From NCBI GenBank assembly GCA_004022145.1, contig RCNU01000010.1: 64,000 nucleotides of DNA; one strand, given 5' to 3'. Of this stretch, positions 14,601 through 64,000 are shown in pieces (position 1 is the stretch's first letter; each line of letters begins with the position of its first letter). A model generated the notes under the pieces. That model was not told where the DNA came from. It ran no database searches and was given only the letters and a program-made list of their open reading frames with translations. Both the position numbers and the translations under genes were made by a program. This stretch comes from Paecilomyces variotii. Its lineage: Eukaryota.

Positions 14601-15867
14601 GAGAAGCAATCGAGAAGGCGGATCGAGACATTGAAGCTCTCGCCCCTGAACTGTCGAAAGCCCAAGTGAAGTACGATGATATCCACCATCGTGCCGAAGC
14701 AAGGGAGGCTGAGCTACAGAAGGAGATCTCTAACCTCTCGGATAACCTACACCTGCTGGACACTGCAAACGATGACATCGAATCGTACACCGAACGGGGT
14801 GGTCCTGATCGGCTAGAAAAGACTAAAGAGGAGCTTACTCGTGTCGAAGAAGAGATTAGGGCTTTTGAGACAGAACTCGGAAACATGACAAGAGAAATCA
14901 ACAAGATCTCCTCTCAATTGAAGGATAGTGAGAATACAAAGCGGCAGTACTCTGATAACCTGACCTACCGCCAGGCAAACAGGGCCTTGGAAGAAGTCAG
15001 AGCAGAAATCGAGAAGCTGGAGGCACAGAACGCAGAAGTTGATCGCAGTCGCTTCAAGGAGGAATCTGAACGGCGCACTCGTGAACACAACGCACTCGCT
15101 GCTAAACAAGCTAGCAAGATGGGCGAGATGAAATCAAAGGATGATCAACTAATGCAGCTGCTTGCCGACTGGAATACGGACTATAAAGATGCAGCGGCCA
15201 AGTTCAAAGAGGCCCACATCAAAGTCGAAACGACGAAGGCTGCTGTCGAGGACCTGGCTCGGTACGGAAGTGCATTAGACAAGGCTATCATGAAATACCA
15301 CAGTCTCAAGATGGAGGAGATCAATTCAATCATTGGTGAACTCTGGCAGAAGACCTACAGAGGTACTGATGTGGACACAATTCTCATTCGTTCTGACAAT
15401 GAGAACGCCAAGGGCAACCGATCCTACAACTATCGCGTATGCATGGTCAAGCAAGACGCGGAGATGGACATGCGTGGTCGTTGCAGTGCTGGTCAGAAGG
15501 TCCTCGCTAGTATCATCATCCGCCTTGCTCTGGCAGAGTGTTTTGGCGTGAACTGCGGTCTCATCGCACTTGATGAGCCAACTACGAATCTCGATAGAGA
15601 TAACATCAGATCTCTTGCCGAGTCACTACACGATATCATCAGAGCGCGTCAACAACAAGCTAACTTCCAGCTCATTGTAATCACCCACGACGAGGAGTTC
15701 TTGCATCATATGCAGTGTGCCGACTTCTGTGACTACTACTACCGTGTATCGAGAAACGAGAGACAGAAATCGATTATCGAAAGACAATCGATTGCAGAGG
15801 TATGTTAATCATGTCTCTGGACAGGGCCCCGGTTTGTTATATACTGACATCAAACTAGGTTATGTAA
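11619..15867 (+). CDS. RAD50: DNA repair protein RAD50 (MRN complex)
   Basis: Walker A GYNGSGKT, long coiled coil, zinc hook CRTC, signature CSAGQKV, Walker B/D-loop [11 protein letters not shown]. There are several 5' introns and a terminal exon GTT ATG TAA at 15859-15867. Confidence 0.97.
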
Positions 15868-24715: not shown

Positions 24716-25645
24716 TCATTGAGCTGACTGTACCCTGGGCTTGCTGAGATGCTCCAATCGATGGAGATGGCCGTGAGGGATTGTATAATCAGACACTGGA
24801 GTTCGCTCTGGAGGGCATTCTTGCATCGCCTGGTTTTGGTAAGCATTGACCTGGTCTGCATACAGATTCACCCTCTCGGGGTAAGCGCCCATGTGCCGTG
24901 CGAAATACTCTTCATTATTATGTATACCTCTACTGGGATCCTCGGAGGTCCGCTGAAACTTCAGAGGCCGCTCATAGTATGAAGTACAGTCTCGATCAAT
25001 AGAATAATATCCTCCAAATGTACCGGCTGTTTGCAGAGACGAGTAATTAGGAGGTCGAGATAGCGCAGATTGAGAATAATCTTCTGGCATTAAAGTCCGT
25101 TTCATTATTTTCCGGGATCTTTTTCGGAGCCTTAACTTCACGCCCTGGTCCACGAATGATCTTGATAAAAACGTCGATTCTGTCATACCGGGGAAGTACT
25201 TCTGGGAAGACACGGTGAAGCGATCAGAGATGACAGATTCGAGGCCGACAACAATGTCTTTTCTCATCTCGAAGAGAGTGAACCTCAACCGAAATTCACC
25301 TTCAACCTTTATGAATAAGTTCCCGAAAATAAAGAAGCCTCCGTCGCTATTATCGACGTCCTTCAGTCGGTGAAGGGACGAAACCAGTGTTCCTGCGAGA
25401 GCGGTAGACGGCTGCACCGTAGCCGGACGATCCTCTGCGGCGTCGTACAGACTCATGCACATAAAATAATATGGGTTTTGCAGGTAGTTCTGCGCGAGAT
25501 AATGATTACCGTCCCGAATCCTGAGCTGAATGATGGGTGGCGGATCGATGGGCTTGCGGTCTCTTTCTTTGCTGCCAGCCATTTTTGCCCGATCGGGCTG
25601 TTGGCGGATCAACAATTCGAAATCGGCTCTATGAGTGGTCGGCAT
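24716..25645 (-). CDS. Velvet-domain regulator, VosA-like, intronless
   Basis: RQQPDRAKMAG..DRKPIDPPPIIQL, LAGTLVSSLHRLKDVDN.DGGFF, EGEFRLRFTLFEM and FPGMTESTFLSRSFVDQGVKLRLRK form a VosA-class velvet domain in one 309-aa ORF. Confidence 0.9.
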   Translation of the reverse strand: MPTTHRADFELLIRQQPDRAKMAGSKERDRKPIDPPPIIQLRIRDGNHYLAQNYLQNPYYFMCMSLYDAAEDRPATVQPSTALAGTLVSSLHRLKDVDNSDGGFFIFGNLFIKVEGEFRLRFTLFEMRKDIVVGLESVISDRFTVSSQKYFPGMTESTFLSRSFVDQGVKLRLRKRSRKIMKRTLMPEDYSQSALSRPPNYSSLQTAGTFGGYYSIDRDCTSYYERPLKFQRTSEDPSRGIHNNEEYFARHMGAYPERVNLYADQVNAYQNQAMQECPPERTPVSDYTIPHGHLHRLEHLSKPRVQSAQ

Positions 25646-27896
25646 AATCAGAGATGTAACTGGGAATTATTGAATCGTGTATGGAACCACAGAGATGTAC
25701 GTATACCTGAGTTGTGCTTGCAATTGAATTAGAATGAATCTCGGATCGCTCGATCTGATATTCTAGGAGGGCTTTTACATAGTTAACTGATTCTCCTTGT
25801 TCCTTGCCTTGCTTTGGTAGAGCTACTTTTCCATTTACGATCCCTAACGAAATCATCTCTCCGCTCTGTATTGATACTTGAACCTATATTTGGAGTTTAA
25901 TATGTTCATATTCTTACTGAGATAGGCTTAGCACTTTCCTCGACATGACCTGGCTCCTATCCGAATGAGGAACCGACCCGAATCAACATTGTTAATAACG
26001 GTTCCCGTTCAGCCTAGATCTAAAGACTGGTCTAATCTATTACCTAGTCCAAGCTCAGCCGCAAGATTAGCTGCCTAGGTATTTCAGAGCGGCTCCGAAT
26101 CGAGACGTGGAGTAAGATCTCATCAACCTCCCGCCCAATGCACCCGGGATCAAGCAATAAGGGTTCACTCTACGGTACTTGTGACTCAGTCTGACATCCC
26201 CATCTGCCTAATATGGTCATGAGACTCTCAGGAGCGCGGGATTTTGGGGATGTTGTCTTTTAGAAAGATTACCCGGCCTTGAGAGATGGCTATCTTACAA
26301 CCGTAGAAGAGAGTCTGTATTCACTTTTGTACTTATTTTGCAGAAGAGAACCATTCATTGTTCGTGGAAAGAAACCCACCAAGAGGGGTATTCATGAAGA
26401 ATGCTCGATGCAACATTTTTACTTGCCAGGTTGATGCCGTTCGTCTCGATTTGCCTATAGCTTCAGCAGACAATCTCTGTAGACTGGCCAGAAGAGACTT
26501 CGGTTTCGACCTTTGAAACGGACATGTTTCATGTGTCTTTTCCAAAACCGGCGGCAAGCGTTTTTCTCTACTATCGCCGATGCGTGAATTTACCACACGG
26601 CGTGTGAGCAACCACAAAGAACACGGTTTTGTGCGCCAGCAGTTGGATGCAATACCTACTAGTTAATGGATTTCGGACAGAAGAACAGCTATAGAGTCTT
26701 TGTTTCTACTTCCTCTTCGATGCTTCGGGACCAATAATCTTCGTACAATGGCAACAATCCGATATCGGCTTTCACCGCGTAAGCACGGCGTATTAGATCC
26801 CCAAGGCTGCAACCAGAAAGAGTGGCTTGGCTGATCTTGTCCTAGCGAAGCTTGGGTGTTTCTTTGTTCCGGTCACAAAACATTGAGGCGATCGATGAAA
26901 CCATCTAGTAGTTTCGTCAGAACCATAAGCGGGTCAGTGATAACGACCTGTGCTGTCGCTAGAGCGCCAGTGTAAGTCACTAGACAGAACGCCTGGAGTG
27001 AACAAGCGCTTCTGATCACTTAACTAAGAGCTGGCCTAATCTTGTCATCTATGACACTTGGGTCTGAGAATGACCAAAGACAGACGGTGGCTTGCGGCAG
27101 GACTGGGGCTGTGAGACTTCACCGGCTCAGAGCCTAAGCTAGCGCACTCCAAGCAGAAAGAGGTATGGTAATAACATTCTTTAAAATGTGCCAGGGAAGA
27201 GCTATAATAACGCAGACTCGATAGAGATAATAATAATCCTGTTCTGGGAAGCTGGTTATGAATCCCTGGCTGCTCCGTGTTTCGCGGCCGTCGCAGATCC
27301 AGTTTCACCAAGTTGTGCGCAGTAGGAATACGGAAAGACGAGCCGGATAGAGGATGGACACAGGACAATAAAATCTCAGGCCACCCGGGACACAAAAAGA
27401 CAAGCCTGAGTTCCACAGCTCTTCGTTTCTTTCTTTCTTTTGTTATTTTGATCTCACCTCATCTCATCTCAGCGCTGAGAAAGCATCGACGACCAATCAG
27501 CCTGCTGGGACGAGCCGGGAGAACCGCTGGATGAACGCCGGTCGTTGCCCAGTATAACTAATTATAATTCCCGCCCGGGATTTGGACTGGATGTATCCCT
27601 CTCTAGAGAGCTGGTCTTCTCTTTAATAATTATTATCTTCTCTTTAATGTTCTCCTAGAGTTGCTTATTCTTGTTTCTTTGTGTTACCCATCCCCAACCA
27701 CCCCGCTCAACCTCGTGAGGCAAGCCTGGCTTTGACTTCCGTTCCGCAAACGTCAATCGGCGGCGGACTTGCGTGTGCTGGATAGAATTCGAATTCGATA
27801 GCATCGGATCAAGCCCCCCTTGATAAAAGCACTCCATGTGCTAGAAGACACCTTGTCGGATTGTTTCTTCTGCTTCCTGCCTCGAATCCGAGCGCG

Positions 27897-30800
27897 ATGG
27901 CGTCCTCTTCGTATGCGCCAGTGCCTACGACAGCCGATGACGAGTCCGCCGCTTCCAGAGGGCCACCGGCCGCGCACATGGCCACGACAACGGTGAAGGT
28001 GGACGGGATGACATGTGGAGCATGTACCTCGTCAGTGGAGAGTGCGTTCAAAGATGTCCCCGGTGCAGGGAACGTATCTGTCAGTTTGGTGATGGGCAGG
28101 GCGGTGGTCCATCATGACCCGTCGCAGCTACCGGCGGATAAAGTAGCTGAGCTGATCGAGGATCGGGGCTTCGATGCGCAAGTTCTATCCACCGACCTTC
28201 CAGATACCCAGGCAGACGAGATCGAGGACGACGGTCCGGAGATGGTGACAACTACTTTGGCAGTGGAAGGAATGACCTGCGGTGCTTGTACCTCAGCGGT
28301 CGAGGGAGGATTAAAAGAGGAGGCCGGCGTGCGATCGATAAGTGTATCTCTTCTGTCAGAGCGTGCGGTCGTGGAACATGACCCGTCCGTGATCACGCCG
28401 GAGAAGATTGCAGAAGTAATTGAGGATCGTGGATTTGGCGCTACAGTGCTGGACACCAAACCGTCAGAGGCGCGGTCTTCGAAGACAAAGGGACCGGCTG
28501 AGGAGAAGCCCAAGTTCTTGACGACGACGGTCTCTATTGACGGAATGACCTGCGGTGCATGCGCCTCGAGCGTCCAGAGAGCTTTTGACGGCGTCGATGG
28601 TCTCCTGCAGTTCAACATCAGTCTGCTGGCAGAGCGCGCAGTCATCGCCCATGATCCTCTAAAGCTGTCTGCGGAGAAGATTGTCGAGCTGGTCGATGAT
28701 GCTGGCTTTGATGCGCGCATAGTGTCTTCCGAACCGCATACATCCGGGTCTTCCAAAACGTCCAAGTCAGTAAACCTTAGCCTCTATGGTCTTACAGATG
28801 CTGCTGCGGCAACCTCTCTGGAAGAAACAGTCCGCCAGAAACCCGGCATCATCTCAATATCTATATCCGTGGCTACATCACGGGCCTCTGTCAGCTACAA
28901 CTCGTCCATCATCGGTATCCGCTCCATCGTGGAGACTATCGAGGCCGCTGGCTTTAATGCTCTGGTGTCCGATTCAGATGATAATAATGCGCAGTTGGAG
29001 TCCTTGTCAAAGACAAAGGAGATTCAGGAGTGGAGACGGGCGTTCCTGTTCTCCCTCTCTTTTGCTATTCCGGTCTTCCTTCTGGGCATGATCGTCCCTA
29101 TGTATCTGAAGCCGCTGGACTTTGGCAAGTTCCAGATATTGCCTGGTCTCTACCTGGGGGATCTCATCTGTCTGGTCCTTACGATCCCAGTACAATTTGG
29201 TATTGGTATGCGCTTCTACGTTGCCAGTTTCAAGTCTCTGAAACACCGTTCTCCCACGATGGACGTCCTGGTCATGTTGGGCACATCGTCTGCCTTCTTC
29301 TTCAGTGTCTTCACCATGTTCATGGCTATCTGGTACCCGCCGCACACACGACCGCATACCGTCTTCGACACAAGCACCATGCTCATTACTTTCATCACTC
29401 TTGGTCGCTGGTTGGAGAACAGAGCAAAGGGTCAGACGTCTAAAGCCCTATCACGTTTGATGTCTCTGACTCCCTCGATGGCGACGATCTACGAAGATCC
29501 GATCGCTGCCGAGAAAGCCGCAGAGGAGTGGGAAACCTCAGCGAAGTCGCCGCAGGAGAAGACTGACGAGGCCACCCCTGCTCACACACGAAACGCGGGT
29601 TTGAAAACAATCCCAACCGAGTTGATTGAGGTCGGTGACGTTGTCGTTTTGCGACCTGGTGACAAGGTATCGGCCGATGGTATTATCATCCGCGGAGAGA
29701 GCTATGTTGACGAGAGCATGATCACTGGAGAGGCCATTCCGATCCACAAGAAGAAAGGCAGTCTCGTCATCGCTGGTACTGTCAACACGGCTGGCTCGAT
29801 GGATTTCAAGGTCACCAGAGCCGGTCGAGACACTCAACTTAGCCAGATCGTCAACCTCGTGCAAGAAGCCCAAACGAGTCGAGCGCCTATCCAGCGTATG
29901 GCTGATGTCGTCGCCGGTTATTTCGTCCCCACCATTATTTCCCTTGGATTGATCACTTTCATCGGCTGGATGATTCTCAGTCACATCCTCCCCAATCCGC
30001 CAAAGATCTTCAATGCGGCAGGTAACGGAGGGAAGGTCATGGTATGCCTGAAGCTCTGTATTTCCGTCATTGTCTTTGCCTGTCCTTGTGCCCTTGGCCT
30101 TAGCACTCCCACAGCGGTCATGGTTGGCACGGGAGTGGGCGCCGAGAATGGTATCCTCGTGAAGGGAGGCGCTGCCTTGGAAGCCGCAACAAAGATCAAC
30201 CATGTCGTGTTTGACAAGACAGGAACCTTGACCGTAGGAAAAATGAGCGTCGCTGAGACGAGAATGGAACGCATTTGGTCATCCAACGACTGGCGCCGGC
30301 GTCTATGGTGGCTGATTGTTGGTCTCGCGGAGATGGGAAGTGAACACCCGGTGGGAAGAGCTATCGTCGAAGCTGCTAAGGTGGAGACTGGAGGCTCTAG
30401 CGAAGAGACGCTGGATGGCAGTGTGGGCGATTTCGAAGCTACTATCGGCAAGGGAATCTCTGCCGTCGTGGAGCCCAACTCTGGTGTTGAACGCACGCGG
30501 TACCGCGTCCTGCTGGGAAATGCGTCCTTCCTCCGGGACCAGGATGTGCAGGTCCCTGAAGCCGTTGACCCCGACTCTCAGCCTCCTGACGAGTCTGCCT
30601 CTGCGTTTTCTGTGCCGTCAAAGCCAAATGACTTCGCCGGGCTGACCCTTATTCATGTGGCCGTCGACGGTCAGTACGCGGGCACCATCTCGCTCCGCGA
30701 CTCGCTCAAGCCATCCGCTGTTGCTGCAGTTGCCGCAATTCATCGTATGGGCTTCAAGACCTCACTCATCACAGGCGACACATACTCCACGGCTCTGTCC

Positions 30801-31505
30801 GTTGCGAAGGCAGTGGGCATCCCACCTGTGTCAATCCGCGCTTCCGTGTCTCCCTCCCAAAAGCAGACCATCGTTGCCGAGCTTCAGGCCGGCGGAGATC
30901 GTGTCGCAATGGTTGGAGATGGTGTCAACGACTCGCCAGCCCTGGCTACCGCGTCTGTGGGAATTGCGCTCGCATCGGGTACCGACGTCGCCATGGAAGC
31001 AGCCGACATTGTGCTCATGCGACCGGATGACCTGCTGTCTGTTCCCGCCAGCTTCTCCTTGGCCCGCTCGATCTTCAACCGCATCAGACTCAACCTCATG
31101 TGGGCCTGTGTCTACAACATCATCGGTCTACCGTTCGCCATGGGTCTTTTCCTCCCATTCGGAGGCATCACTCTACATCCCATGGCCGCTGGCGCCGCGA
31201 TGGCTGCATCGAGTGTCTCCGTCGTCGTCAGCAGTCTGCTCCTCAAATTCTGGAGCCGCCCACGCTGGATGAGCGTCGAGAGGCTGGAAAAGGAAGTACA
31301 GACGGGCAAGATCAGATCTCACCTGTCTCGAGACCTGCGCTGGACCGAAGTCTTAGCAGCCTCCGTCCCAAGATCTCCTCGTGGTGCGCTCGATCAATTC
31401 AAAGCTCTTGCTTCTGCCGCGATTGGCATTATTACCGGCAAGGGATCAACAGGAGCCAGAGGCGACGAAGGTTACATTCCACTGCAAACGGTCGAACCAG
31501 TCTAA
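27897..31505 (+). CDS. Copper-transporting P1B-type ATPase (Ccc2/CtpA/YgA-like)
   Basis: Three GMTCGAC HMA motifs plus a degenerate fourth, TGEA, CPC, DKTGTLT, SEHP and GDGVNDSPAL. Intronless; ATG at 27897. Confidence 0.96.
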   Translation: MASSSYAPVPTTADDESAASRGPPAAHMATTTVKVDGMTCGACTSSVESAFKDVPGAGNVSVSLVMGRAVVHHDPSQLPADKVAELIEDRGFDAQVLSTDLPDTQADEIEDDGPEMVTTTLAVEGMTCGACTSAVEGGLKEEAGVRSISVSLLSERAVVEHDPSVITPEKIAEVIEDRGFGATVLDTKPSEARSSKTKGPAEEKPKFLTTTVSIDGMTCGACASSVQRAFDGVDGLLQFNISLLAERAVIAHDPLKLSAEKIVELVDDAGFDARIVSSEPHTSGSSKTSKSVNLSLYGLTDAAAATSLEETVRQKPGIISISISVATSRASVSYNSSIIGIRSIVETIEAAGFNALVSDSDDNNAQLESLSKTKEIQEWRRAFLFSLSFAIPVFLLGMIVPMYLKPLDFGKFQILPGLYLGDLICLVLTIPVQFGIGMRFYVASFKSLKHRSPTMDVLVMLGTSSAFFFSVFTMFMAIWYPPHTRPHTVFDTSTMLITFITLGRWLENRAKGQTSKALSRLMSLTPSMATIYEDPIAAEKAAEEWETSAKSPQEKTDEATPAHTRNAGLKTIPTELIEVGDVVVLRPGDKVSADGIIIRGESYVDESMITGEAIPIHKKKGSLVIAGTVNTAGSMDFKVTRAGRDTQLSQIVNLVQEAQTSRAPIQRMADVVAGYFVPTIISLGLITFIGWMILSHILPNPPKIFNAAGNGGKVMVCLKLCISVIVFACPCALGLSTPTAVMVGTGVGAENGILVKGGAALEAATKINHVVFDKTGTLTVGKMSVAETRMERIWSSNDWRRRLWWLIVGLAEMGSEHPVGRAIVEAAKVETGGSSEETLDGSVGDFEATIGKGISAVVEPNSGVERTRYRVLLGNASFLRDQDVQVPEAVDPDSQPPDESASAFSVPSKPNDFAGLTLIHVAVDGQYAGTISLRDSLKPSAVAAVAAIHRMGFKTSLITGDTYSTALSVAKAVGIPPVSIRASVSPSQKQTIVAELQAGGDRVAMVGDGVNDSPALATASVGIALASGTDVAMEAADIVLMRPDDLLSVPASFSLARSIFNRIRLNLMWACVYNIIGLPFAMGLFLPFGGITLHPMAAGAAMAASSVSVVVSSLLLKFWSRPRWMSVERLEKEVQTGKIRSHLSRDLRWTEVLAASVPRSPRGALDQFKALASAAIGIITGKGSTGARGDEGYIPLQTVEPV

Positions 31506-50338: not shown

Positions 50339-50800
50339 CGCGCCAACGCACGCAGAGTCCAGAGCGCAAAGCTGTGCGGGGGATAGGAAATATGATCAGG
50401 TCTGGACTCCGTCTGGCAATGCGACGCGATACGATAGGATCGTCTGGGTCTGGCGCGCCGCGGCTGTCCTAGCCTTGCGTCACTGGCGACAGCCGCGCTC
50501 TCTCCACTTCCGCGGTGGCATCGCATACAGTTGGGCTATAAAATCTCAATATGCCAGTTCACACGAACTATAAGAATATACAACTTTCGCAGGTTTTACT
50601 GAGAAACACAATGAGTGCTCTAGATAGTCTCGACATGTTATTGGTATGTAAGTACTTGGTGGGAGTTGAGTATCTCAAAGGGTCCATGAGCAATGCTTCT
50701 GACATTCTCCAGACAACGTAGAGGCGCAGAACTCTCTTTAACTGGTTTCTCATGATTTATAATTTCTGATAGATGTTCCGTGGGATAATGCAACAATTAT

Positions 50801-50868
50801 CGGGAACGAAGCCGGTGCGGCTCGTTAGTTAGATATTGATTTTATGCCATTCCCCGGAGCAGCACCCG
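50801..50868. promoter_or_regulatory. Two CGG-N8-CCG sites upstream of the aminotransferase
   Basis: cggGAACGAAGccg at 50801-50814 and cggAGCAGCACccg at 50855-50868. Confidence 0.7.
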
Positions 50869-51000
50869 AGTCATGTATGTAAGTACACCGCAAACTAGAA
50901 GATTCATCTATACATATATCCGTCAATTACTTCACCGAATAGCATATCAGTTACAGTCAAAGAATTCCATTTTGACCAATTCCCATTTCGCGTAACCAAG

Positions 51001-52565
51001 ATGTTTGCAGACGTACAACCCGGTCCGAAGGACCCTATGTTTGACCTGAAAAAGCTGGCTGACGACGACATTTCCCCGCGAAAGATCGACTTGGGAGTAG
51101 GTGTGTACCGTAACGAGGAGGGGGGCTACCACGAACTTCAAGCAATTAAAAAGGTGTGCATATGATCACCTCGCATTCCTAGCATCTTTTATCTGACATA
51201 TTATATCGATCAGGCCAAGAAGATCCTAAATGAGACCAATCCGGGACACGATGTAAGTTGTCATATTCCAACGGTCCCCCGCTATACTGACTGTGATGGC
51301 TCTGACATAACCACAGTATGAGCTTACTACTGGCAATCCATCCTTTTTGAATGATGCAGCCGTATTGATGTTTGGAGAAAACAGCAAGGCTCTTAAGACT
51401 AAAAAGGTATCTACAGAGTGTCAATGTTTCTAAGACTAAATCTACCGTACTAATAGCCACAGATTGCTTCCGTACAAACCATTTCCGGCACAGGAGCCTG
51501 CCACTTGGCAGCATTGTTTCTTCGACGTTGCAAAGCATTCGCTCAGAGTGTCGTCTACGTGGGTACTCCAGCTTGGGGCAACTACGAACCTCTACTCAGA
51601 CTTGTTGGCTTTGAAGTTCAAAAATACACTTACTATGACCCGCAAACGCATGCGGTGAACTTAAAAAACCTCCTTGACACCGTGGCCAATGCCCCTCAAA
51701 AAAGTATATTCATTCTTCAGGGATGTTGCCACAATCCAACAGGAGCGGACCTCAGTCAGGAGCAGTGGAGGTTGCTTGCAGATGCCATGGAGAAAGCAGA
51801 TGTGTTCCCGCTCTTCGATGTCGCCTACCAGGGCCTCGGTGCGTCTCCCGACAACGACGCCTATGGAATTCAACTATTCGTCGAGAAGGGATTTGAGATG
51901 GTAGTATGCCAATCCTTCTCGAAGAACTTTGGTCTTTATGGTGAACGATGTGGGGTTCTACATGTTGTCACAGACGAGGAGACAATCTGTGCAAATGTCT
52001 ATGACCAGCTCCGTTCCCTGATCAGATGGGAATTCTCATCGTCGCCTGCGTATGGCTCCCGACTGGTGAATATCGTTCTGGGAGATCCGGATCTCAGAGA
52101 AGAATGGTTTGTTGCTCAAAATATGTGTTAGAAGGGGCGTTTTTCAAAGCTAACTTTTAGATAGGCTCAAGGAGTTATCGACTATGAGAAATCGACTCGT
52201 CGATAATCGAAGGAAGCTCTACCATAATCTAGTACATGTGCATAAGGTATGTTCGAAGAACTTAGGGCAGACTTCAGAATCTATACTGACCATTCTCAGA
52301 CACCAGGAAGTTGGGAAGCCCTTCTTACAACCACTGGTCTATTTTGGTATTGTCCATTTTCCTGCTCTGCTAGACTACGGGCCATGCTAACTCTATGCGC
52401 AGCTATCTACCTCTCGCGAAAGAGGAAATCATCAAGTTAAGAGAAAGGTTTCATATCTATCTACCAGACAATGGGCGTGTAAATGTCGCTGGTCTTAACC
52501 CGACGAATTTGGGCTCCGTTGCTTCGGCTATCAATGAGGTTGTGAGAGATGCTACTAAGCTCTGA
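51001..52565 (+). CDS. Aspartate-aminotransferase-family (class I PLP) enzyme; candidate 4-hydroxyglutamate transaminase
   Basis: KIDLGVGVYRNE, QTISGTGA, HNPTGAD, FDVAYQG and SFSKNFGLYGER (PLP Lys). Multi-exon; ends ...RDATKL*. Confidence 0.9.
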
Positions 52566-52794
52566 GGCCGGATCATGAGCCAATGTTAGAGCTGGAAGGT
52601 TCCCTAATGCCTAGAAGAGTAGTTAACCATGGAAAACTATTTTGCTTGACGGCCCGCGCTCGATGTAGACCTACGGCTCCTGGACCCGGAGGTCTGTGAG
52701 TTTGTAGCCTATCTGTCAATTGCTTTTGCAACCTTGAAGAGTATAGTCATTCAATACCGAAGGGTCCATCTCATCCATCCAATGGGATCATATC

Positions 52795-52859
52795 CGGGAT
52801 GTCTGCCGGTCATGGTATATCAGTCACGCGTCCTCGATTGAGTACCGGAACAGTTCCCG
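52795..52859. promoter_or_regulatory. Two CGG-N8-CCG sites upstream of the aldolase
   Basis: cggGATGTCTGccg at 52795-52808 and cggAACAGTTCccg at 52846-52859. Confidence 0.7.
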
Positions 52860-53031
52860 ACACAGCAAAATAGTAAGCGTGTACACCATAGCATAAGGTA
52901 GAACGCGAAAATAATATCATGGATTTAAAAGGCTATGTTTTCTGACAGGTCTCTCAGTCAAATAGGACTACAAGTGAGACTGAGAAAGCGTCTAGACGAA
53001 CCCCCCATCACACTACATTATACAACACAAT

Positions 53032-54032
53032 ATGGCTGTTCCCATTCCTCCTCCTTTCGGAATTTATCCCCCAGTTGTTACATTTTTCAACGAAGACGAG
53101 ACGGTAGACTACAATGCATTTTCGAAGCATCTTGGAAGGCTTCTAGACGGCGGCGTTACGGGCCTCGTTATCCATGGGAGCAACGGAGAAGCCTCCCATC
53201 TTTTGCACGAAGAGCGCGCGGAGATGATTCGGGCGGCACGAAGAATTGCGGATCAGCGAAAGAAGTCAACTGTGATCATTGCAGGGTGCAGTGCACCTAG
53301 TGTTCGTGAAACGTTGCTCTTTATCGAAGAGGCGAAGCAAACTGGGGCGGATTATGCATTGGTTCTTCCGCCTAGTTTTTGGCCTGCTGTCATGACAAAG
53401 CCTGTGATAAGATCTTTTTACATTGATGTAAGGATCTATTTCCCAAATTGTATGTACATTTCGCGCCATCATCACTGACAATATACATCTTATAGGTCGC
53501 TGCAAAGTCACCACTTCCGATTATAATTTACAACTTCCCCGTTGTAAGCGGCGGCCTCGACCTAGATTCCGATCTTATCACCGACATCGCAACTTCATCC
53601 CCAAACATTGTGGGAGTGAAGCTCAGCTGCGGAAATGTAGGAAAAGTAGCAAGACTATCCTCATCTTTCGACCGCGGCAGATTCGCTCCCTTCGGAGGAA
53701 AGGCAGACTTTCTTCTTCCCGGCCTCATTGCAGGATCGCATGGCGCAATCGCGGTTCTTGCGAATCTTACCCCCAAGGCTCTTTCGAAGGTGATCAGTCT
53801 TTATGACGAAGGAAATGTAGCTGAGGCGAAAGAACTTCAAGCAAAACTGTCTCATGCCGATTGGACTTTGAGCACGTTGGGGGTTTCTGGTACGAAGTTG
53901 GCAACGCAGAAGTTTTTTGGGTACGGTGATCCGAAGACGAGGACTCCTTTTGTGACTGTCGGAAAAGACGCTATTGGCGTGAAGGCGCTCGAAAAGTTAC
54001 AGGCGGTCATTGATGTGGAGAATGGGATTTAA
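53032..54032 (+). CDS. DHDPS/NAL-family aldolase; candidate 4-hydroxy-2-oxoglutarate aldolase (HOGA), 1 intron
   Basis: GIYPPVVTFF, GSNGEA, IYNFP (catalytic Tyr) and GVKLSCG (Schiff-base Lys). Confidence 0.85.
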
Positions 54033-54328
54033 AGCAAATCTGTAGTCGTTTAGGCAAGCGAATGGACCATGGTCATCATTAAACTATTCCTTTTTTTTTT
54101 TTTTTGATATAACCTTGCTAGTCACTAAGTAGACATAAGCGTAAAATGAGGAAGTCTTCATGCGGAACTGAAACTTAACAGCATTGACCATGGCTACTTT
54201 TCAGCTGGACAAGCATAAAAAATGGGAATATGCTTTCTGTTATTGATATGAGCAGAGAGCTCAGTTAGAGTTGAGTAATTCTGTGCTATTCTTAACATAG
54301 GTATAATATCCATCATTGCCACGATCCT

Positions 54329-55675
54329 CTAGAGCTTAGCACGAGGTGTAGTGGCCAAATCTGAACTCGAGCCTGTCCTCCACGCAACAGTGTCACCCGG
54401 CTTTGACTCCTTCCATTTCCATCTGGATACTCTCTGCTGGCCATCCACCAGGAGCTTCATCGCAAGGCCACCCATGACGGGTAACATCTTAAAGCCGTGC
54501 CCTGAGTCCCCGGAGAGGATTGCGAGTGATCTTTCCGTTTCTGGAACATAGTCTATCACAAAATTATAATCATCGCTATCTGCAAACCAGCACAGATGAT
54601 TGTCGATGAGGGGTCTGTCAGCGAGATGGGGCAACGCCTCACGTAGCAGTCTTCTGGATGCCTCTTCATCCTCTTTCAAGATAAAGTCGGAATCTGCGAG
54701 TCTCGACGGTGGTAGAGAGATTCCAGTAGAGCCGGAGGAATTGGTATATCCCCCTCCCATGTGACAGACTTTCAGTTTATTTGTGGCCAGGTCAGGCTCA
54801 AAGAAGAAACCGATATCGCGCACGTTGATAACCGGAATTCCTCGGAGCTTTTCTGTTTCCTCCTGACTGAGCTGAATGTGGGAGACACCCCAACACCTCG
54901 CTGTTATCTGAGACGTGGCAGACGGTATTATCCTCACTGCATTCGCACCAACGGCCACGATAGTCGTGGCCGCATGGTAGCGCACGTCACCTTTTGTCCT
55001 CGCGCCGATACAGCGACGGGTCCCAGGCGCGAAGAGGAGTTCAGCAACCTCACCTTCGTGAGGTCCAAGGCGGAACGAGACTCCTTTCTGGAGACAATCT
55101 TCATAAACTGATTTCATTGCATCCGCGGCGTGAGCGTATCCGGCCAGAGAATTGAGATAGCCGCTCCAACCTTTCACGGGCCCAGAAAGTGCAGGTATCA
55201 ATTTCTTGATTGCAGAGCTATCAGGACATGGCTGTATCTTGTCCCGAACTTCGGGGTGCCCTGAAACAGAAGCTAGATACTTTTGCAATATATCCCGCGA
55301 TATCTTCGGTGCTGACCCAGAGGTAACATTTAGAAATCCGACCTGGTGAAAGTATGGCTTGTACAGAGGATCTTCCTGCCATTTCTTTATGGCTTCCTGA
55401 GCGGAGAATGTCAGTTCTGGCTCTTTTATATTAGGATTAAAGTGTGAGTAAATGCTTACCAATGTCAACGCAGTGTAGAACGAGTCTGCGTACTCGGGAC
55501 GCACGATTTTGTTAAGATCGTAGCCTGCTGAGAAGCGACTTGGAATCTGGCCGTCTTTTTCCAGAACGGTGATATTTGTATAGCCTGCTGATGCCAGCTG
55601 ATGGGCTGTGGCTAGACCAAAGACACCAGCACCGACAACAAGAACAGGATCATTCTTTTTGTGCTCGGAAGTCAT
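54329..55675 (-). CDS. FAD-dependent sarcosine/L-pipecolate/fructosyl-amine oxidase family protein with PTS1 (AKL); in-frame intron at about 55398-55460
   Basis: VGAGVFG, SAGYDLNKIVR, GFFFEPD, LCW (flavinylation Cys), GDSGHGFKMLP and C-terminal AKL. Confidence 0.9.
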   Translation of the reverse strand: MTSEHKKNDPVLVVGAGVFGLATAHQLASAGYTNITVLEKDGQIPSRFSAGYDLNKIVRPEYADSFYTALTLVSIYSHFNPNIKEPELTFSAQEAIKKWQEDPLYKPYFHQVGFLNVTSGSAPKISRDILQKYLASVSGHPEVRDKIQPCPDSSAIKKLIPALSGPVKGWSGYLNSLAGYAHAADAMKSVYEDCLQKGVSFRLGPHEGEVAELLFAPGTRRCIGARTKGDVRYHAATTIVAVGANAVRIIPSATSQITARCWGVSHIQLSQEETEKLRGIPVINVRDIGFFFEPDLATNKLKVCHMGGGYTNSSGSTGISLPPSRLADSDFILKEDEEASRRLLREALPHLADRPLIDNHLCWFADSDDYNFVIDYVPETERSLAILSGDSGHGFKMLPVMGGLAMKLLVDGQQRVSRWKWKESKPGDTVAWRTGSSSDLATTPRAKL

Positions 55676-55907
55676 GATTATGGGAGTGTTCTAATTCGGG
55701 TGCTCGCTGATACAAGATAACGAATGATAGCTTCTAATATATCTACTATTGGATCTTGAATATATTCGCGGAATCAATAACTTTATAAGCAATACCTAGG
55801 AGCTCCTGTACTAATCATACGATAACCTACTCATCGGCAGCCATACATTGCAAGGGATCTCCAGCTTGCCATTGCATTCATGACCGCCTGCATCCTGCGA
55901 AGTCGGT

Positions 55908-55991
55908 CGGGAGGATTCCCGGTGTGGTTACCCGCGGCTGTAGATAAGCTGTATGCTATAACTAGGTAGGTATTGATCGGAATCCCTACCG
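55908..55991. promoter_or_regulatory. Two CGG-N8-CCG sites upstream of the FAD oxidase
   Basis: cggGAGGATTCccg at 55908-55921 and cggAATCCCTAccg at 55978-55991. Confidence 0.7.
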
Positions 55992-56331
55992 ATGATCGTG
56001 ATACGGAATTGATACCCTAGATAGGCAGTTTCTTAAAAGATTCTACGGATAGCATAACAGGAAAAAATTAGGTACATGTTGGAATATTTGCCACTCGACA
56101 TGAGTGCACGACCATATCACAGCTGCTAGAGAGGAAAGGACTGGTCAAGGGCTTGTATTCTCTAGGGGGGAGCGAGCTCCAGCTCCAGCAACTATCTAGC
56201 TATATGCTGTGTTTTGGGCTAGGCCCTTCCATCCAAGGTTGCCTACTAGGCCATAGGGCCCAAGACCAGTAATGCGAACGTATCTTTCCGTGAGAGCCTT
56301 CCGTGATTGCACTTTGCTATATGTCTAATTT

Positions 56332-57612
56332 CTAGTGTAGCATCGTCCTAGCGACCTCGACCCTGGTTTATACATTAGCTGAAGATATTCAAGAGCAAAG
56401 AAAAGTCAAGCAAGATCATAACTTACATCGTAAATGTCCCTGCCGATACTGGAATTGCACGGACTAGCGTTGGTGTCAATCCACGGTAAAAGCCTTTAAA
56501 TCCGTAGGCATTGAAAGTCTGGCGAACCGCATCAAGGGTGGTGCGATATTGTTGCTTCTCGCCGAAGCTATCTGTTTGCATTTTGCTCTTGATGATGTCC
56601 ATCGGATAGTTTGTTATCCAGAGGATTTCACCGACGAGAGCTCCGCAACAAGCAATCTGCCATTTGGGAAGTTCGTCCCGTTTCTTATTTTGCACTTTGG
56701 AAATCTCCTGAACGAAAACCTCAAAGCAAGAGAACCAAATCCCATAGCTGCCGAACTCCCGCAACATAGTCGCCGTAAGTCCTCGATATAGCCCCCGCAT
56801 CCCAGCTTGTCTGACTATCTTTCGTACACAATCCGCTGTTCCTGAGTAAAGGCGGCTGGACTTCTCATGAGTTTGAGTCTGGAGTCGTATCCTGACGTGT
56901 TCGGTAGGGCCTGAGACGAAACTGTTCACAACACCGGCCATTCCTCCTGCTAGATAAATTCGTCCCAGACTGGTCTTTCCGTCAATGCTGGTATGGCTAT
57001 CGTCGCCAACAGTGTCAAAGAATTGACTAAAAGCGTGGAAGGACGAATACACTATGCTAATCTTTAGTTTGGTTTTGTGAGAGAGTACTCATCAGATAAT
57101 CGGACAGACCGGACATACACAAGCCCCTACTCCAACCAGCGGAGCAGCGGATCCCTTATAGTTAATGAACGATGTTACTAACATTCCCCCCCCCAAAAAA
57201 AAGACAGAAGCGTCGATATTGGAGCTTTCAATAACACACCTTGTAGAAAGCTAGAGGGCCTTCAAGAGACCAGATATTGCGTGCAACAGAGAACATGTCC
57301 CCATTTCCTCTAGTCTGCATCCGCACCTTCATAATATCTACCGGCCATGAAGGTTAGGGTTTGATGACAATGGAAAGATATAAGAAATATCACAAACCAA
57401 ATGGTTGCCCTGATGACCGTTAATGATTGTACACTGTAAATATTGTATACTTTATCTCCGTGGCAGTAGAGCTTTGCATGGATATTAATCCTGAACATAC
57501 CAATCATAACCTGTGTGACTCCCCCTACAATACCAATAACCATTTCTTTAGCTGTTTCTGCGACATGGTCTCTCGGGATTTCCAAGGTAGGAACCGAATC
57601 AGTTACCTCCAT
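56332..57612 (-). CDS. Mitochondrial carrier (SLC25, Ymc1/Ymc2/carnitine-carrier-like), multi-exon
   Basis: Px[D/E]xx[K/R]x[K/R] repeats (PTEHVRIR, PMDIIKSK) and GLYRG/GFYRG motifs. The last exon is VEVARTMLH*. Confidence 0.9.
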
Positions 57613-57759
57613 ACTGTCGGCGAAGAATCTCTATAGACACCGGTTCACAATGAAATATATTTAGCATTCCCTGTTCGAGGTTGTTCTTCCAGAGTAGTTG
57701 ACACTGACCGTTGGGCCCATTACCTAGTTCAATTGACTGTCTTGTTAAGTCCAGGAATT

Positions 57760-57882
57760 CGGTAGAAGATCCGATCTTCATCCGCTAGTCTGAAGGATAG
57801 CATGCAAACGTCAAGTTCGGTTTAGAATATCCCCAGTATCTTATCTGTGGTCAATTCATTGTAGATTCCGGGAGTAAACCCG
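57760..57882. promoter_or_regulatory. Two CGG-N8-CCG sites in the divergent carrier/dehydrogenase promoter
   Basis: cggTAGAAGATccg at 57760-57773 and cggGAGTAAACccg at 57869-57882. Confidence 0.7.
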
Positions 57883-58082
57883 GTGTTCCAGTGGAAAACC
57901 CTGATAACACTGTAACAACCAAATTGCTCACCCCACATTACTGTTTAACGGCGGCATTATTTATGATAGCACTCCTCTTCAAAGTCAGGAATATTAAGCT
58001 GCTATACTACAGTATGTCCTCAAAACTAGGCCAAGGGACCTTGACTGTCACCAGCGTCTGTGTCTTTACAACGACGTCGAAA

Positions 58083-59518
58083 ATGACATTAAAACCAACA
58101 CGAAGTTGCTACAGAATCGTGCAACACCAGATACGTTGCAAGTCTACTATAGGAGTATCTCTGGGCAAAGCCCCCGCACCTACATTACGACCTCCACTTG
58201 CGGTTCTTCCTACAGGTACACTTCTTCGTTCGCTCTTGGTTTCCACCATCTCGTCGAACCGATATCTGTTGCTCCCATCACTTTCGATCCTCGCATACCT
58301 TTCTGATCCGCGGAGAGGCGCTCTTTTAAGCGTTGATAGGAATCCAGTCCTTCATGCAATACTTAAGAAGACGTTTTACGAACAGTTTTGCGCCGGAGAA
58401 AATGCGGAAGAGACGAAGAACAGCATGGACAAGCTCAAACGACTAGGCATTCGCGGGATTATTCTCACCTATGCACGAGAGACCGTCTTTGATCACAAGA
58501 CAAACAAAGCGCAGCCTCAAGGACACATATTAAGCGAACAGAGTGTTGCCGTCGATTACTGTCCTAATATTGAAGCCTGGCGAAAGGGGACACTTGAAAC
58601 CATTGACCTTATTAGTGAAGGGGATTATTTGGCCCTCAAGTATGGATCTTCCGTTCTCTTGCATTTGAATACAGATTAACTGGCTGCAGATTGAGTGGCA
58701 CTGGCCCAGTGGCTACTAAAGCTTTCAGTGCCGGTGAATTACCACCGCAGCAAATGATGAATGCCTTGGATGAAATATGCGTTCGTTCAAGGGACCGCAA
58801 AGTGCAAATCCTAGTCGATGCTGAGTCTCAGCATTTTCAGCGAGGAATCGCTCGCGTGACTCTTGAACTTATGCGCAAGTATAACCGTGATGGATACGCT
58901 CTTGTCTACAATACCTACCAGGCCTACCTGAAGAGCACCCCGAAACTCATTGAAGAGCATCTCGAAGCTGCCAGCAAGGAAGGGTTCACTCTGGGTCTCA
59001 AGCTAGTGAGAGGAGCATACATTGCTTCTGATGAACGATCTTTGATTCATAACACCAAGCTGGATACTGATAATGCCTACAATGAGATTGCCCAAGGAGC
59101 TCTCAAGCAACATATTGGAAAGTTCGGTGGGGTTGATGGCCGTCCATTTCCTTCACTGAATCTGTTCTTGGCGAGTCATAACAAAGAAAGTCTTTTTGCG
59201 GCCTACGAGTTATACCGTCAACGCCTAAACTCGAATTTGCCTACCGTTCCCGTTCGATTTGGTCAACTCCATGGCATGTCGGACGAGGTCAGCTTCTCGC
59301 TCATACAGCTGAAAGATGTTTATGGTGACAACATCGGCCCGGAAGTCTACAAATGTTCTACATGGGGCAGCATGCGTGAGTGCATGGCATATCTGATACG
59401 ACGAGCGATAGAAAACAGGGATGCTGTATCGAGGGCAAACGACGAATATTCTGCATTGAAAGCGGAGTTGAGGAGGAGATTGGGCTTTTCTTCGTGGCTT
59501 TCCTCTGCGAGTCACTAG
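58083..59518 (+). CDS. Proline dehydrogenase family enzyme (PrnD/Put1 paralog); candidate hydroxyproline dehydrogenase, 1 intron
   Basis: FYEQFCAGE, LVDAE, YNTYQAYLK, KLVRGAY, ASHN, QLHGM and YLIRRAIEN. Basic presequence-like N-terminus from ATG 58083. Confidence 0.93.
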
Positions 59519-59777
59519 ACGCTTGAAAGGGCATATAGTTATGCAGCTGCTTTTTGGATATCAGAGATCAATGTCAAGAAACATCGTACTTTTGCTGAAG
59601 TCACCAGTGCAAATTGGAGAGTATTCTTTAACATAACATCAAATGAAGCCATCAATCCTCTCCTTCATTTATCGCGGACGGCCTACATCGTGATACATCC
59701 CCGCTCTACCCCGCAGGAGTAAGCGATCCACATCTACGGAGAGCGTTCGGGTTGAAGATATCCTGCTGTATCTATGT

Positions 59778-59791
59778 CGGAACCCCTTCCG
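59778..59791. promoter_or_regulatory. CGG-N8-CCG site upstream of the P5C reductase
   Basis: cggAACCCCTTccg. Confidence 0.65.
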
Positions 59792-59941
59792 TAGTCTCTG
59801 TGGATCTTAGGTATGGATGTTTGAAATACCGCCGAACAGCCTCTGCCAACTCGTTGTTTCGTGATTATGTATATATTTGAATCACAGATGGGTTTCGTTT
59901 GGAAGACCTGGAATAGCCAGTTTACGCAGGAATAGATCAGA

Positions 59942-60907
59942 ATGGCACCGGAAATAAACCACCTTACGTTATGTGTCCTAGGTTGCGGTGAGTTTCAATG
60001 CTGTAGAGATACTTTCATAATTTCTGACGGCCGAGAAGGAAACCTAGGAACCTCAATCCTCGCTTCCCTTGTCGATAGTCCTCCGGAAGGCGACAGTGTA
60101 CCCTCGGCAAACCAATTTATCGCCTGCGTCAGAAGCGAAACTTCAGTTCACAGAGTGAAGGAAAGATTCTCTTCGCACTTATCAAGGTTGAAAGTGATGA
60201 TAGGGAGTAACGTGAGCGCGGTTCGCGAGTCGGACGTCGTTATTCTGAGCGTCGATCCGGCAGACGTCGAGAACACATTGCGACAATCCGATCTCGCTAT
60301 TGCCCTAAAGAACAAGCTTTTGATCAGTGTCGTGGCCGGATGGACTAGAAAGAAGCTGGAAACGACGATATATGGAAGTGAAACCACGCTTGCAAACATA
60401 GAAGAGCGCTGTCAGATCGTCCGTACTCTGCCAAACATTGCAGCCACTGTTGCAGAATCAATTACCGCTATTGAAACTTCAGAACCGCCCTTGGCGCTTC
60501 ACTATGTCCAAATCACAGACTCCATCTTCAATCGCATTGGGAAGACTGCGTATATCGACCCCAAATTGATGGATGCAGCCACTGCTGTGGGAGGATCAAC
60601 GCCCGCACTTTTCTCTGTTATCTGCGATGCATTAGTTGATGCATCAGTGGCTGTTGGGGTTCCGAGGGCTATTGCACAGACTATGATCTTCCAAGCCATG
60701 AAAGGCACAGCTACTCTTTTGCAGAGCGGAATACACCCTGGGGCTCTTAAGGATCAAGGTACCAGTCCAGAAGGGTGTACAATTGGCGGGTTGATGGTTC
60801 TGGAAGAAGCTGGTGTTAGGGGCCACGTTGGAAAAGCGCTACGGGAAGCTGTTACTATTTCTCGTCTTATGGGGAACGTGGCTCATGTAAACGATACAAG
60901 GCATTAG
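59942..60907 (+). CDS. Pyrroline-5-carboxylate reductase (in-frame intron near 59988-60038)
   Basis: LGCG-NLG Rossmann motif, ISVVAG, VRTLPN, GGSTPA and TSPEGCTIGGL. Confidence 0.92.
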   Translation: MAPEINHLTLCVLGCGEFQCCRDTFIISDGREGNLGTSILASLVDSPPEGDSVPSANQFIACVRSETSVHRVKERFSSHLSRLKVMIGSNVSAVRESDVVILSVDPADVENTLRQSDLAIALKNKLLISVVAGWTRKKLETTIYGSETTLANIEERCQIVRTLPNIAATVAESITAIETSEPPLALHYVQITDSIFNRIGKTAYIDPKLMDAATAVGGSTPALFSVICDALVDASVAVGVPRAIAQTMIFQAMKGTATLLQSGIHPGALKDQGTSPEGCTIGGLMVLEEAGVRGHVGKALREAVTISRLMGNVAHVNDTRH

Positions 60908-61080
60908 ATATCCTTTATTTGAAGACTTTCAGCATCTCTACTGTATGTAATGACTTGGCCTCAAGATAATTCTAGATGGACAAGACCTTGAATCACTGTA
61001 GAGTTTCACTCTATTGTTATGTATGCCTGCTATGTATGTATGTATGTACATACATACCAGGAATGATCACAACGGTGGCA

Positions 61081-62052
61081 CTAGATGTTTATCGTCTCAT
61101 CCTGGAGCGCTGCGTGGCCAGTCAATCGGAGTTCTCGATTCACAATGCATCCAATTCCAAAGGCAGGGATTAACCGAAAGCATCGTGCCGCAACAGTTGA
61201 GAGCATACCCTGGCGAATGCGGACAAGTCGATCGGAAAAGTGTATGGCGTGTGGTCGGTTATGTAAATCCAACCCGAAGAGATGGACAGGAGCAGCAACC
61301 AGCTGTGTTAGAGCTGGAACGACTAATTGGGACAGGATGGATTTGGTATGGGAATTCGCAGCTAGCGAAGTCGGAATGTAGCCCGATAACATATCCGCCA
61401 GGGTGAACGACCCGGAGATAGTAAGTGCATCCCGCAGGAGAAATGTCGCCCAAACACTCATAGGGACTCGGCTGGCCACTTTCGCAGTCACTGCCGAGGG
61501 AGTTGAGAGGCGTGGTGATGGTATCGCAGTCCCACTCTGTGTAGCGGGGATTGGCTCTATGGGACAGTCGGAAGCGGTTCTGTAGAACTGCGCAAAGCGA
61601 ACATCTTTCCACAATCCCAGAGGTACGTTTACCAAGAAAGTAGAAATGAAGATGGTGCTTTGAACAGTAGCTGTATCTGTGACCTGAAATGCGTCTTTGA
61701 TTATAGTCTCCGATAAATTTGCTGCCGAGTATGTGACTCCGTATAGAGACGAGACGATGAAGAATGGTTTCGATATGAAGAATCGCCGTGGTTGTCTCAG
61801 ACAATAGCTAGTATGTCTCTTCAGGATATCAATGAGATTGTTCTTCGAGGATGCCTGTTCAACGATGGCTCTGCAAAATTCAGTCACTAATTGAGTGATA
61901 TAGATCGTTTCATGCGCTCCTCACCTGTCAATAATTGTCACCGCAGGGGCTACCAATGTTGCAGAAACTAACGCGGAAGTCACATCACTTCCAAGTTCTC
62001 CTAGAAAACGGTAATTATAGCCATTTCGGGCTTCTCGTATCTCTGAAGACAT
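61081..62052 (-). CDS. Uncharacterised mitochondrial-carrier-like membrane protein, 1 intron
   Basis: Spliced MSSEIRE...LGSDVTSALVSATLVAPAVTIIDR-AIVEQAS, then LWKDVRFAQ, FLLRDALTI, APVHLFGLDLHNRP and RLIPAFGIGCIVN. Several TM helices. Confidence 0.7.
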
Positions 62053-62270
62053 GCTGCGGTATGGAGATCCTGCTGGACTCTACTCCGATCTTCATGGTGT
62101 TCAAAATACTACTAAATTGTCGTAGATATAAAGGTCGGGATATTTCCGAGAGGCAACATCCATTGTAGGGCTAGTCTGTCAGATAATGACTCTACCCAGT
62201 CTCGTATAGTGGATGCTATAAGCGTTGGTGGTAACTAAGCTTGTCGGTAACATCTCGTGATGGTCTCAAT

Positions 62271-62621
62271 CGGAACGCTGTCCGCTTGTGCCAACAAGCG
62301 ACTACTTACGCTAAGTAACGTCCTAGCACAATGATCAATTCTGTACGTCAAAAGAAACCACCATAGATAGCCTGAAAATATGGTAGATCTAACACAGGCG
62401 GGTCTGTCCAACCTCCACGGTTAGTTTGCGTGGGTATACTCGGATTCCCTACCGGTGATGAATCAAGCTGCGCCAGTGTTGTTCTGCGGGGTCGAGGCGG
62501 CGAGGTTACCGTGATTATGGCGAAGAGTGCAATAGATTCGGAACGAGTAGTTATGGGTACAAGCCAATACGATGCGATAGCAATCTATGAGCCGATAGAT
62601 CAGCCTACGGGTTGAAGTCCG
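62271..62621. promoter_or_regulatory. Three CGG-N8-CCG sites in the divergent orphan-carrier/P5C dehydrogenase promoter
   Basis: Sites at 62271-62284, 62441-62454 and 62608-62621, plus an N7 variant at 62136-62148. Confidence 0.7.
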
Positions 62622-62730
62622 GCAAATCTGGCCACATCATAAGTAGAGCTTCGAATGTTGACTCCCCTTGAATCGTTTAGCAGTCAGTTGTATACCTGTT
62701 CTCGGCGTAACACTGACAACTCATCGAAGT

Positions 62731-64000
<1,270 letters not shown>

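Follow-up and report, generated by a model that had tools for sequence, protein, structure and literature searches.

A cluster of eight genes occupies the right end of a 64,000-nucleotide stretch of Paecilomyces variotii DNA (assembly GCA_004022145.1, contig RCNU01000010.1; the whole stretch is referred to here as the window), and the inverted repeat CGG-N8-CCG, in which eight bases separate the two triplets, recurs in the DNA between these genes. The question raised by this locus is what reads the repeat and whether the repeat ties the genes together. A sequence-only reading of the window had listed 12 such sites, placed them in all six upstream regions of the cluster, and proposed that a dedicated PrnA/Put3-like Zn2Cys6 activator co-regulates the eight genes, an orphan included, with the sites setting the left cluster boundary at about 50800. 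Our comparisons suggest, with a probability of about 0.85, that the sites are operators of a neighbouring Zn2Cys6 (Gal4-type) factor and that they define an eight-gene regulon.

CGG-N8-CCG sites in the window

The window contains 25 CGG-N8-CCG sites, and 15 of them fall between 50801 and 62621. All 12 of the sites listed before are present, and three more were detected in this span: 62498 in intergenic DNA, 51837 in the aminotransferase coding sequence, and 61372 in the coding sequence of the orphan (Table 1). The six intergenic regions, delimited by gene starts read from the sequence and with introns backed by the spliced contigs of transcript run X1, amount to 3,413 bp and carry 13 sites, distributed as 2, 2, 2, 2, 1, and 4 per region, so that the claimed coverage of all six holds with at least one site in each; the expected total is 0.4-0.7. 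In first-order Markov simulations of the intergenic DNA the site count averaged 0.41 and never exceeded 3, with none of the 2,000 simulations reaching 13; taking 10 sites per 50,374 bp, as found elsewhere in the window, the Poisson probability of 13 sites was 5e-13. When the whole window was subjected to 100 dinucleotide shuffles, N8 sites averaged 10.05 and numbered 20 at most, compared with the 25 observed. The N8 excess is confirmed and lies far beyond chance.

The remaining CGG-Nx-CCG spacings (x = 0-20) were found 0-4 times each in the same intergenic DNA, compared with 13 for N8. Over the cluster span (50600-62950), N8 gave 15 sites and the other spacings 0-4, whereas outside this span N8 gave 10 and the others 7-17. 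Everted and direct arrangements of CGG showed no comparable cluster-specific excess. Moreover, an unbiased scan of 33,749 trinucleotide dyads with spacers of 0-20 ranked CGG-N8-CCG first (13 observed, 0.64 expected, P 2.5e-13), and the dyad in second place, TCG-N9-CCG, is the N8 site displaced by one base; given the top rank in an unbiased scan, the motif was not cherry-picked. These data demonstrate enrichment at one specific spacing.

The position of the sites is that of promoter elements, since all eight genes have at least one N8 site centred 118-320 bp upstream of the ATG. The extended form with a pyrimidine before CGG and a purine after CCG on both sides (Y-CGG...CCG-R) was observed in 9 of the 13 intergenic sites versus 2 of the 10 background sites. 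At the left end, no N8 site occurs between 45172 and 50801, and the neighbour of the cluster is a PPP4R2-like gene (Pfam) that is absent from the orthologous clusters described below, in agreement with the proposed boundary at about 50800. The match at 51837 is probably due to chance, because the coding DNA of related loci has no N8 excess. As for the 10 N8 sites in the rest of the window, their flanks are poor. A constant distance between paired sites was considered and rejected, the window having distances of 51, 54, 57, 70, 109, and 110 bp and the loci of other fungi irregular ones.

Orthologous clusters and the linked Zn2Cys6 gene

Alignment of orphan homologs retrieved 20 metagenome loci, with orphan identities of 36-46%. 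Analysis by tblastn and Pfam indicated that the loci carry the same cluster with variable gene order (L006 and L007, which lack it, served as controls). The genes common to them encode the FAD-dependent oxidoreductase of the DAO family, the orphan, proline dehydrogenase, pyrroline-5-carboxylate (P5C) reductase, the aminotransferase, the DHDPS-family enzyme, and P5C dehydrogenase. Genes for an amino-acid permease and a transcription factor are additionally present, and the mitochondrial carrier of the window was not seen in these loci with the same searches. The permeases (AA_permease, YAT-type) have N8 sites upstream in L005 (2873-4207), L009 (962-2831), L017 (1342-2694), and L012 (1-624); the window's portion of the cluster contains no permease.

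In single loci, N8 was counted 19 times in L005 (0-9 for the remaining spacings) and 14 times in L014 (0-5). For a pooled count, 14 of the 20 loci were used, leaving out L018 (a copy of L017), L008 (contained in L009), L010 (contained in L012), L015 (close to L014), and the two loci without the cluster. The non-coding parts of the cluster spans had 51 N8 sites versus 3-14 for each other spacing; the corresponding figures were 14 versus 1-21 in coding high-scoring segment pairs and 17 versus 4-12 in DNA outside the spans. A dyad scan over 12 loci, with L002 and L004 also removed as near relatives of L001, again ranked CGG-N8-CCG first, this time among 43,678 dyads (45 observed, 6.8 expected, P 3e-22), followed by the same one-base shift, TCG-N9-CCG. 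At the level of genes, 45 of 48 5' regions from nine loci contained at least one exact N8 site within 900 bp. The check in homologous clusters that the sequence-only reading had suggested was favourable, and the same dyad lends strong support to a regulon that takes in all eight genes, with the orphan among them.

The intergenic DNA of the window gave no blastn match to any of the loci at E<=0.01; as the promoters cannot be aligned, the common N8 word is no remnant of general sequence conservation, and its conservation across them is demonstrated. The two control loci, with an orphan homolog and no cluster, had 2 N8 sites each, within the range of the other spacings. Their orphan homologs (10001-10696 in both L006 and L007, 44-45% identity) lie beside RING-finger, FAD-monooxygenase, and sugar-transporter genes. 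In pooled half-sites, the base at position -1 followed the order T>A>C and G was avoided there, occurring in 5 of 100 half-sites of the loci and 2 of 26 of the window, whereas 7 of 20 background half-sites had it; two bases past CGG, A or T was favoured.

Neither a Zn2Cys6 signature nor a Zn2Cys6 gene was found within the window when the six frames were inspected and Pfam was run on long open reading frames. In the orthologous clusters, the conserved signature CSRCRRQKIKCSGxQPCxNC was present in eight loci, among them L014 in a more divergent form, and in six of the eight it was about 4.6 kb from the orphan. The regulator gene of L005 encodes a Fungal_trans domain besides the Zn2Cys6 domain. 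The regulator genes of 6 of 7 loci have the N8 motif in their 5' regions, so that autoregulation is suggested for those species. The regulator family is widespread in Pezizomycotina, and its P. variotii member, "Zn(II)2Cys6 transcription factor [Paecilomyces variotii]" (P0074; Zn_clus and Fungal_trans domains), aligns to the regulator genes of the loci over its full length. It has 693 residues, compared with about 818 in PrnA of Aspergillus nidulans.

The accession numbers of the P0074 protein and of the orphan differ by exactly 2 in all 13 P. variotii pairs that could be formed, RefSeq included; examples, given as factor and orphan, are KAJ9255917/KAJ9255919 (both on a contig of 210,441 bp), RWQ93294/RWQ93292, and XP_028482939/XP_028482937. 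Counting two genes from the orphan leads to proline dehydrogenase in one direction, so the regulator should lie in the other, and the order of the records would place its gene after P5C dehydrogenase, just past base 64000. Locus tags agree on the linkage (g6836/g6838 in Neopestalotiopsis, g2248/g2251 in Scytalidium). In two proteins, P0048 of Didymella heteroderae and P0051 of Curvularia clavata, an aminotransferase domain is fused to the Fungal_trans domain of the regulator; these are probably merged models of adjacent cluster genes, and as mispredictions they too agree with the linkage. Genetic linkage of the motif to a conserved Zn2Cys6 gene is demonstrated, and the dedicated Zn2Cys6 regulon that had been proposed is well supported.

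Ppr1, Put3, Lac9, Gal4, and Leu3 are all known as dimers that read CGG triplets, and it was these proteins that the DNA-binding domain of the regulator matched among solved structures, with Ppr1 as the best (E 2.8e-6), Put3 next (5.6e-6), and Lac9, Gal4, and Leu3 after them. In the alignment to Put3, neither the domain nor the linker nor the beginning of the coiled coil contains a gap. Among 150 distant representatives of the family, none of the 10 that were looked up had a characterised name, that of PrnA included, and some members have been automatically named 'proline utilization trans-activator'.

Candidate operators, alternatives, and known regulators

The proposed operators would be read by a pathway-specific factor encoded beside a proline/hydroxyproline-type catabolic cluster, past the right end of the window. 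A homodimer would set one zinc cluster on each of the inverted CGG half-sites, 8 bp apart, and each half-site would extend to (T>A>C, not G)CGG-N-(A/T). Between one and four such sites precede every ATG by 120-320 bp, with several in shared divergent promoters, and together they would tie the eight genes into one regulon, which in other fungi would also take in the amino-acid permease and the regulator's own gene. We infer that the linked protein is the binder, that it is dimeric and activating, and that it is induced by an imino-acid substrate (hydroxyproline or proline). The sites have the inverted CGG triplets, the single fixed spacing, and the promoter location of Gal4-type operators, and a cognate Zn2Cys6 protein is assigned to them by linkage only.

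If the excess had arisen from promoters rich in CGG or from duplication of promoter segments, the cluster should stand out in composition or share repeats. The density of CGG/CCG triplets was 24.5 per kb in the cluster, not above the 27.2 per kb found outside, the excess concerned N8 only, no simulation reached the observed count, and no long repeat was common to the promoters, the single match being one of 20 nt at the level of the sites (55978 versus 62441). With the same dyad independently top-ranked in other fungi, nothing was left in favour of a chance or compositional origin after the controls; it is refuted as far as sequence statistics allow, and we regard its probability as negligible. 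A conserved promoter element with no Zn2Cys6 role, such as a chromatin or nucleosome-positioning signal or the target of a non-zinc-cluster protein, would be compatible with a motif of merely six fixed bases and flanks of little information, but inverted CGG triplets at a single spacing are the hallmark of Gal4-type dimers and a Zn2Cys6 gene is conserved in the clusters, making this alternative very improbable. The main rival is that the sites are genuine Zn2Cys6 sites read by another factor, either of the ClrB/CLR-2 type or a broader amino-acid regulator, which would imply a different or additional specificity for the neighbouring factor. It draws on the quotation of CGGN8CCG as a putative ClrB site (PMC8313289), on the size of Zn2Cys6 families, with 373 representatives matching the regulator at E<=1e-30, and on a Put3-like linker that by itself does not predict N8. 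We nevertheless consider this rival unlikely, because in distant fungi the motif accompanies both the cluster and the regulator linked to it and also occurs in the regulator's own promoter, the genes are those of imino-acid catabolism rather than cellulases, and orphan homologs outside the cluster show no enrichment.

Some observations weigh against operators of the neighbouring factor as the explanation. The regulator gene and its promoter are outside the window, and their position comes from the order of accession numbers, not from sequence. The alignment to Put3 has no gaps, yet Put3 reads N10, so that the domain alone does not predict N8. In the orthologous loci, 3 of the 48 5' regions have no exact site, and a few of the counted sites are in neighbouring coding DNA; in the window, the matches at 51837 and 61372 sit in coding sequence. 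Finally, a putative ClrB site with an identical six-base core has been published, and the sites could therefore be read by a different factor.

Compared with known systems, the cluster sites share with those of Gal4/Lac9 (N11) and Ppr1 (N6) the inverted CGG triplets and a factor-specific spacing, and differ from them in this spacing and in the regulated pathway; N6 and N11 sites were each absent from the six intergenic regions. Put3 of Saccharomyces cerevisiae likewise binds inverted CGG triplets as a Zn2Cys6 dimer, in front of genes for proline utilisation, with N10 in place of N8 and with target genes that are not known to be clustered. The Put3 upstream activating sequence, CGG-N10-CCG, was found 0 times in the six intergenic regions and once in the whole cluster span.

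PrnA, which acts on the prn cluster of A. nidulans, is reported in PMC5983819 to bind CCGG-N-CCGG and CCGG-N6/7-CCGG, and both site types were absent from the six intergenic regions. The description PrnA/Put3-like stands only for the DNA-binding domain, with Ppr1 and Put3 as its nearest solved structures, and does not stand for the sites. As described in PMC5983819, the prn cluster resembles the present one in its clustered proline oxidase and P5C dehydrogenase genes, a cluster-encoded Zn2Cys6 factor, a YAT-type permease (here only in the orthologous loci), bidirectional promoters with multiple sites, and the inclusion of a gene of unknown function within the regulon. The P. variotii cluster differs by adding the aminotransferase, the DHDPS-family enzyme, the DAO-type oxidase, P5C reductase, the orphan, and the mitochondrial carrier. 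The same six-base core and spacing are shared with ClrB/CLR-2/ManR, and CGGN8CCG appears as a putative ClrB site in A. niger work (PMC8313289); the targets of those factors are cellulases and mannanases, in contrast to the imino-acid catabolic enzymes and carriers found here, and the factor linked to the P. variotii sites is a member of a family that is conserved within these clusters. The N8 spacing itself is not new, the core being already in print for ClrB.

As to the substrate, the C-terminal exon of the DHDPS-family protein had as its top solved match 3qfe (E 2.2e-37), a putative member of the DHDPS family whose function is unnamed, and human 4-hydroxy-2-oxoglutarate aldolase took ranks 3 and 4 among the solved chains (E 3.6e-13). 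The mammalian hydroxyproline route consists of a proline-dehydrogenase-type oxidase, P5C dehydrogenase, aspartate aminotransferase, and 4-hydroxy-2-oxoglutarate aldolase. Because the gene set parallels this route, hydroxyproline is a reasonable but unproven candidate for the substrate of the cluster; the role of the aldolase is described in PMC3188589. Our literature search found no description of a fungal hydroxyproline cluster or of this regulator, and searches with other spellings of the motif returned nothing relevant. A transcriptome of A. fumigatus grown on hydroxyproline, with 16 co-regulated clusters in its Table S8, is reported in PMC2526178.

Taken as a whole, the locus may hold the operator of an unnamed, widely conserved regulator of a fungal mitochondrial hydroxyproline-degradation cluster that mirrors the mammalian route, with the DAO-type oxidase, P5C reductase, an orphan membrane protein, and the carrier as extra members, and with a linker of Put3 length that nonetheless reads N8; this combination is tentative, and we give it slightly less than even odds. 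If it were true, it would provide a natural case of spacing set by linker conformation and not by linker length. The anonymous eight-gene cluster becomes a testable regulon: its candidate operator, (T)CGG-N8-CCG(A), is defined, its candidate regulator in P. variotii has a name, and its conserved genes include an orphan and, in other fungi, a permease. It is a possible guide to the use of collagen- or plant-wall-derived imino acids by moulds. The type of system is textbook, and the value lies in annotation and experimental access, not in a new principle.

Gene content, coordinates, and transcripts

Gene models were built from Pfam matches on long open reading frames and from gene starts read in the intergenic DNA, giving eight genes (Table 1). 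The introns of the aminotransferase, P5C reductase, orphan, and P5C dehydrogenase genes are backed by spliced contigs of run X1. The closest solved proteins of the DAO-family protein were fructosyl-amine and sarcosine-type oxidases.

Table 1. Genes of the P. variotii cluster and CGG-N8-CCG sites between 50801 and 62621, in coordinates of the window; distances are from site centre to ATG.
Feature	Coordinates	Strand	Basis or location	Remarks
Class I/II (aspartate-type) aminotransferase	51002..52565	+	Pfam	Six introns backed by spliced contigs
DHDPS-family aldolase-type gene (HOGA-like)	53033..54032	+	Pfam, solved-structure matches	
FAD-dependent oxidoreductase (DAO family)	54329..55675	-	Pfam	
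Mitochondrial carrier	56423..57613	-	Pfam	
Proline dehydrogenase	58084..59518	+	Pfam	ATG 58084 read by eye; in-frame ATG further upstream at 58015
P5C reductase	59943..60907	+	Pfam	Intron 59987-60037
Orphan gene	61081..62053	-	Without Pfam match	Intron 61871-61924
P5C dehydrogenase (P5CDH, Aldedh)	62733..64000	+	Pfam	Truncated by window end
N8 site	50801..50814		Aminotransferase promoter, -194	tCGGGAACGAAGCCGg
N8 site	50855..50868		Aminotransferase promoter, -140	Within minor alternative first exon, run X1
N8 site	52795..52808		DHDPS-family gene promoter, -232	
N8 site	52846..52859		DHDPS-family gene promoter, -180	
N8 site	55908..55921		DAO promoter, -240	
N8 site	55978..55991		DAO promoter, -310	
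N8 site	57760..57773		Divergent promoter of 470 bp: mitochondrial carrier -154, proline dehydrogenase -318	
N8 site	57869..57882		Divergent promoter: mitochondrial carrier -262, proline dehydrogenase -208	
N8 site	59778..59791		P5C reductase promoter, -158	Sole exact site of that intergenic region
N8 site	62271..62284		Divergent promoter: orphan -224, P5C dehydrogenase -456	
N8 site	62441..62454		Divergent promoter: P5CDH -286, orphan -394	18/20 nt match to site 55978
N8 site	62498..62511		P5CDH, -228	Poorer flanks: left G at -1; right T, not purine, at +1
N8 site	62608..62621		P5CDH promoter, -118	
N8 match	51837..51850		Within aminotransferase coding sequence	Probably chance
N8 match	61372..61385		Within orphan coding exon	Good flanks, tCGGAAT..CCCGa

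The orphan protein had zero Pfam matches even at E<=5. A hypothetical protein of P. variotii shares 99% identity with it, its relatives are dispersed across Ascomycota, only unnamed Ascomycota clusters match it in Atlas, and in distant fungi it belongs to the core of the orthologous clusters. UniRef names one of its relatives 'Mitochondrial fission process protein 1', and the name of a second begins with 'Mitochondrial carri'; the orphan may be a mitochondrial membrane protein.

Between positions 1 and 46000, the window holds ordinary genes, for a methyltransferase, a WD40 protein, Rad1, a bromodomain protein, an RGS protein, and a flavin reductase, together with a Rad50/SMC-like ATPase (12098-15805), a velvet factor (24719-25666), and a copper P-type ATPase (27786-31502). 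HGATAR (AreA-type) words reached 5.6 per kb in the cluster's six intergenic regions versus 3.0 per kb in the rest of the window, and SYGGRG (CreA-type) words were not denser there (4.4 versus 4.1 per kb).

Run X1 was the sole run that gave spliced contigs, and these support the gene models, not co-regulation. The contigs of X2 and X3, labelled as metatranscriptomic, were unspliced over introns and intergenic DNA between 49000 and 64000 and matched the window at about 98% identity; they represent a related strain's DNA within RNA libraries and are uninformative on expression. Run X17 had no coverage here save a short repeat, which is not evidence of a silent cluster. A minor spliced form in X1 (50849-51085) joins 50878 to 51085 with GT..AG borders; it would start at ATG 50874, bypassing the main aminotransferase ATG at 51002, and its first exon overlaps the site at 50855. 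The segment 56122-56205, in the intergenic DNA between the DAO and carrier genes, draws X17 and X2 contigs that continue into unrelated sequence, and it is probably a dispersed repeat.

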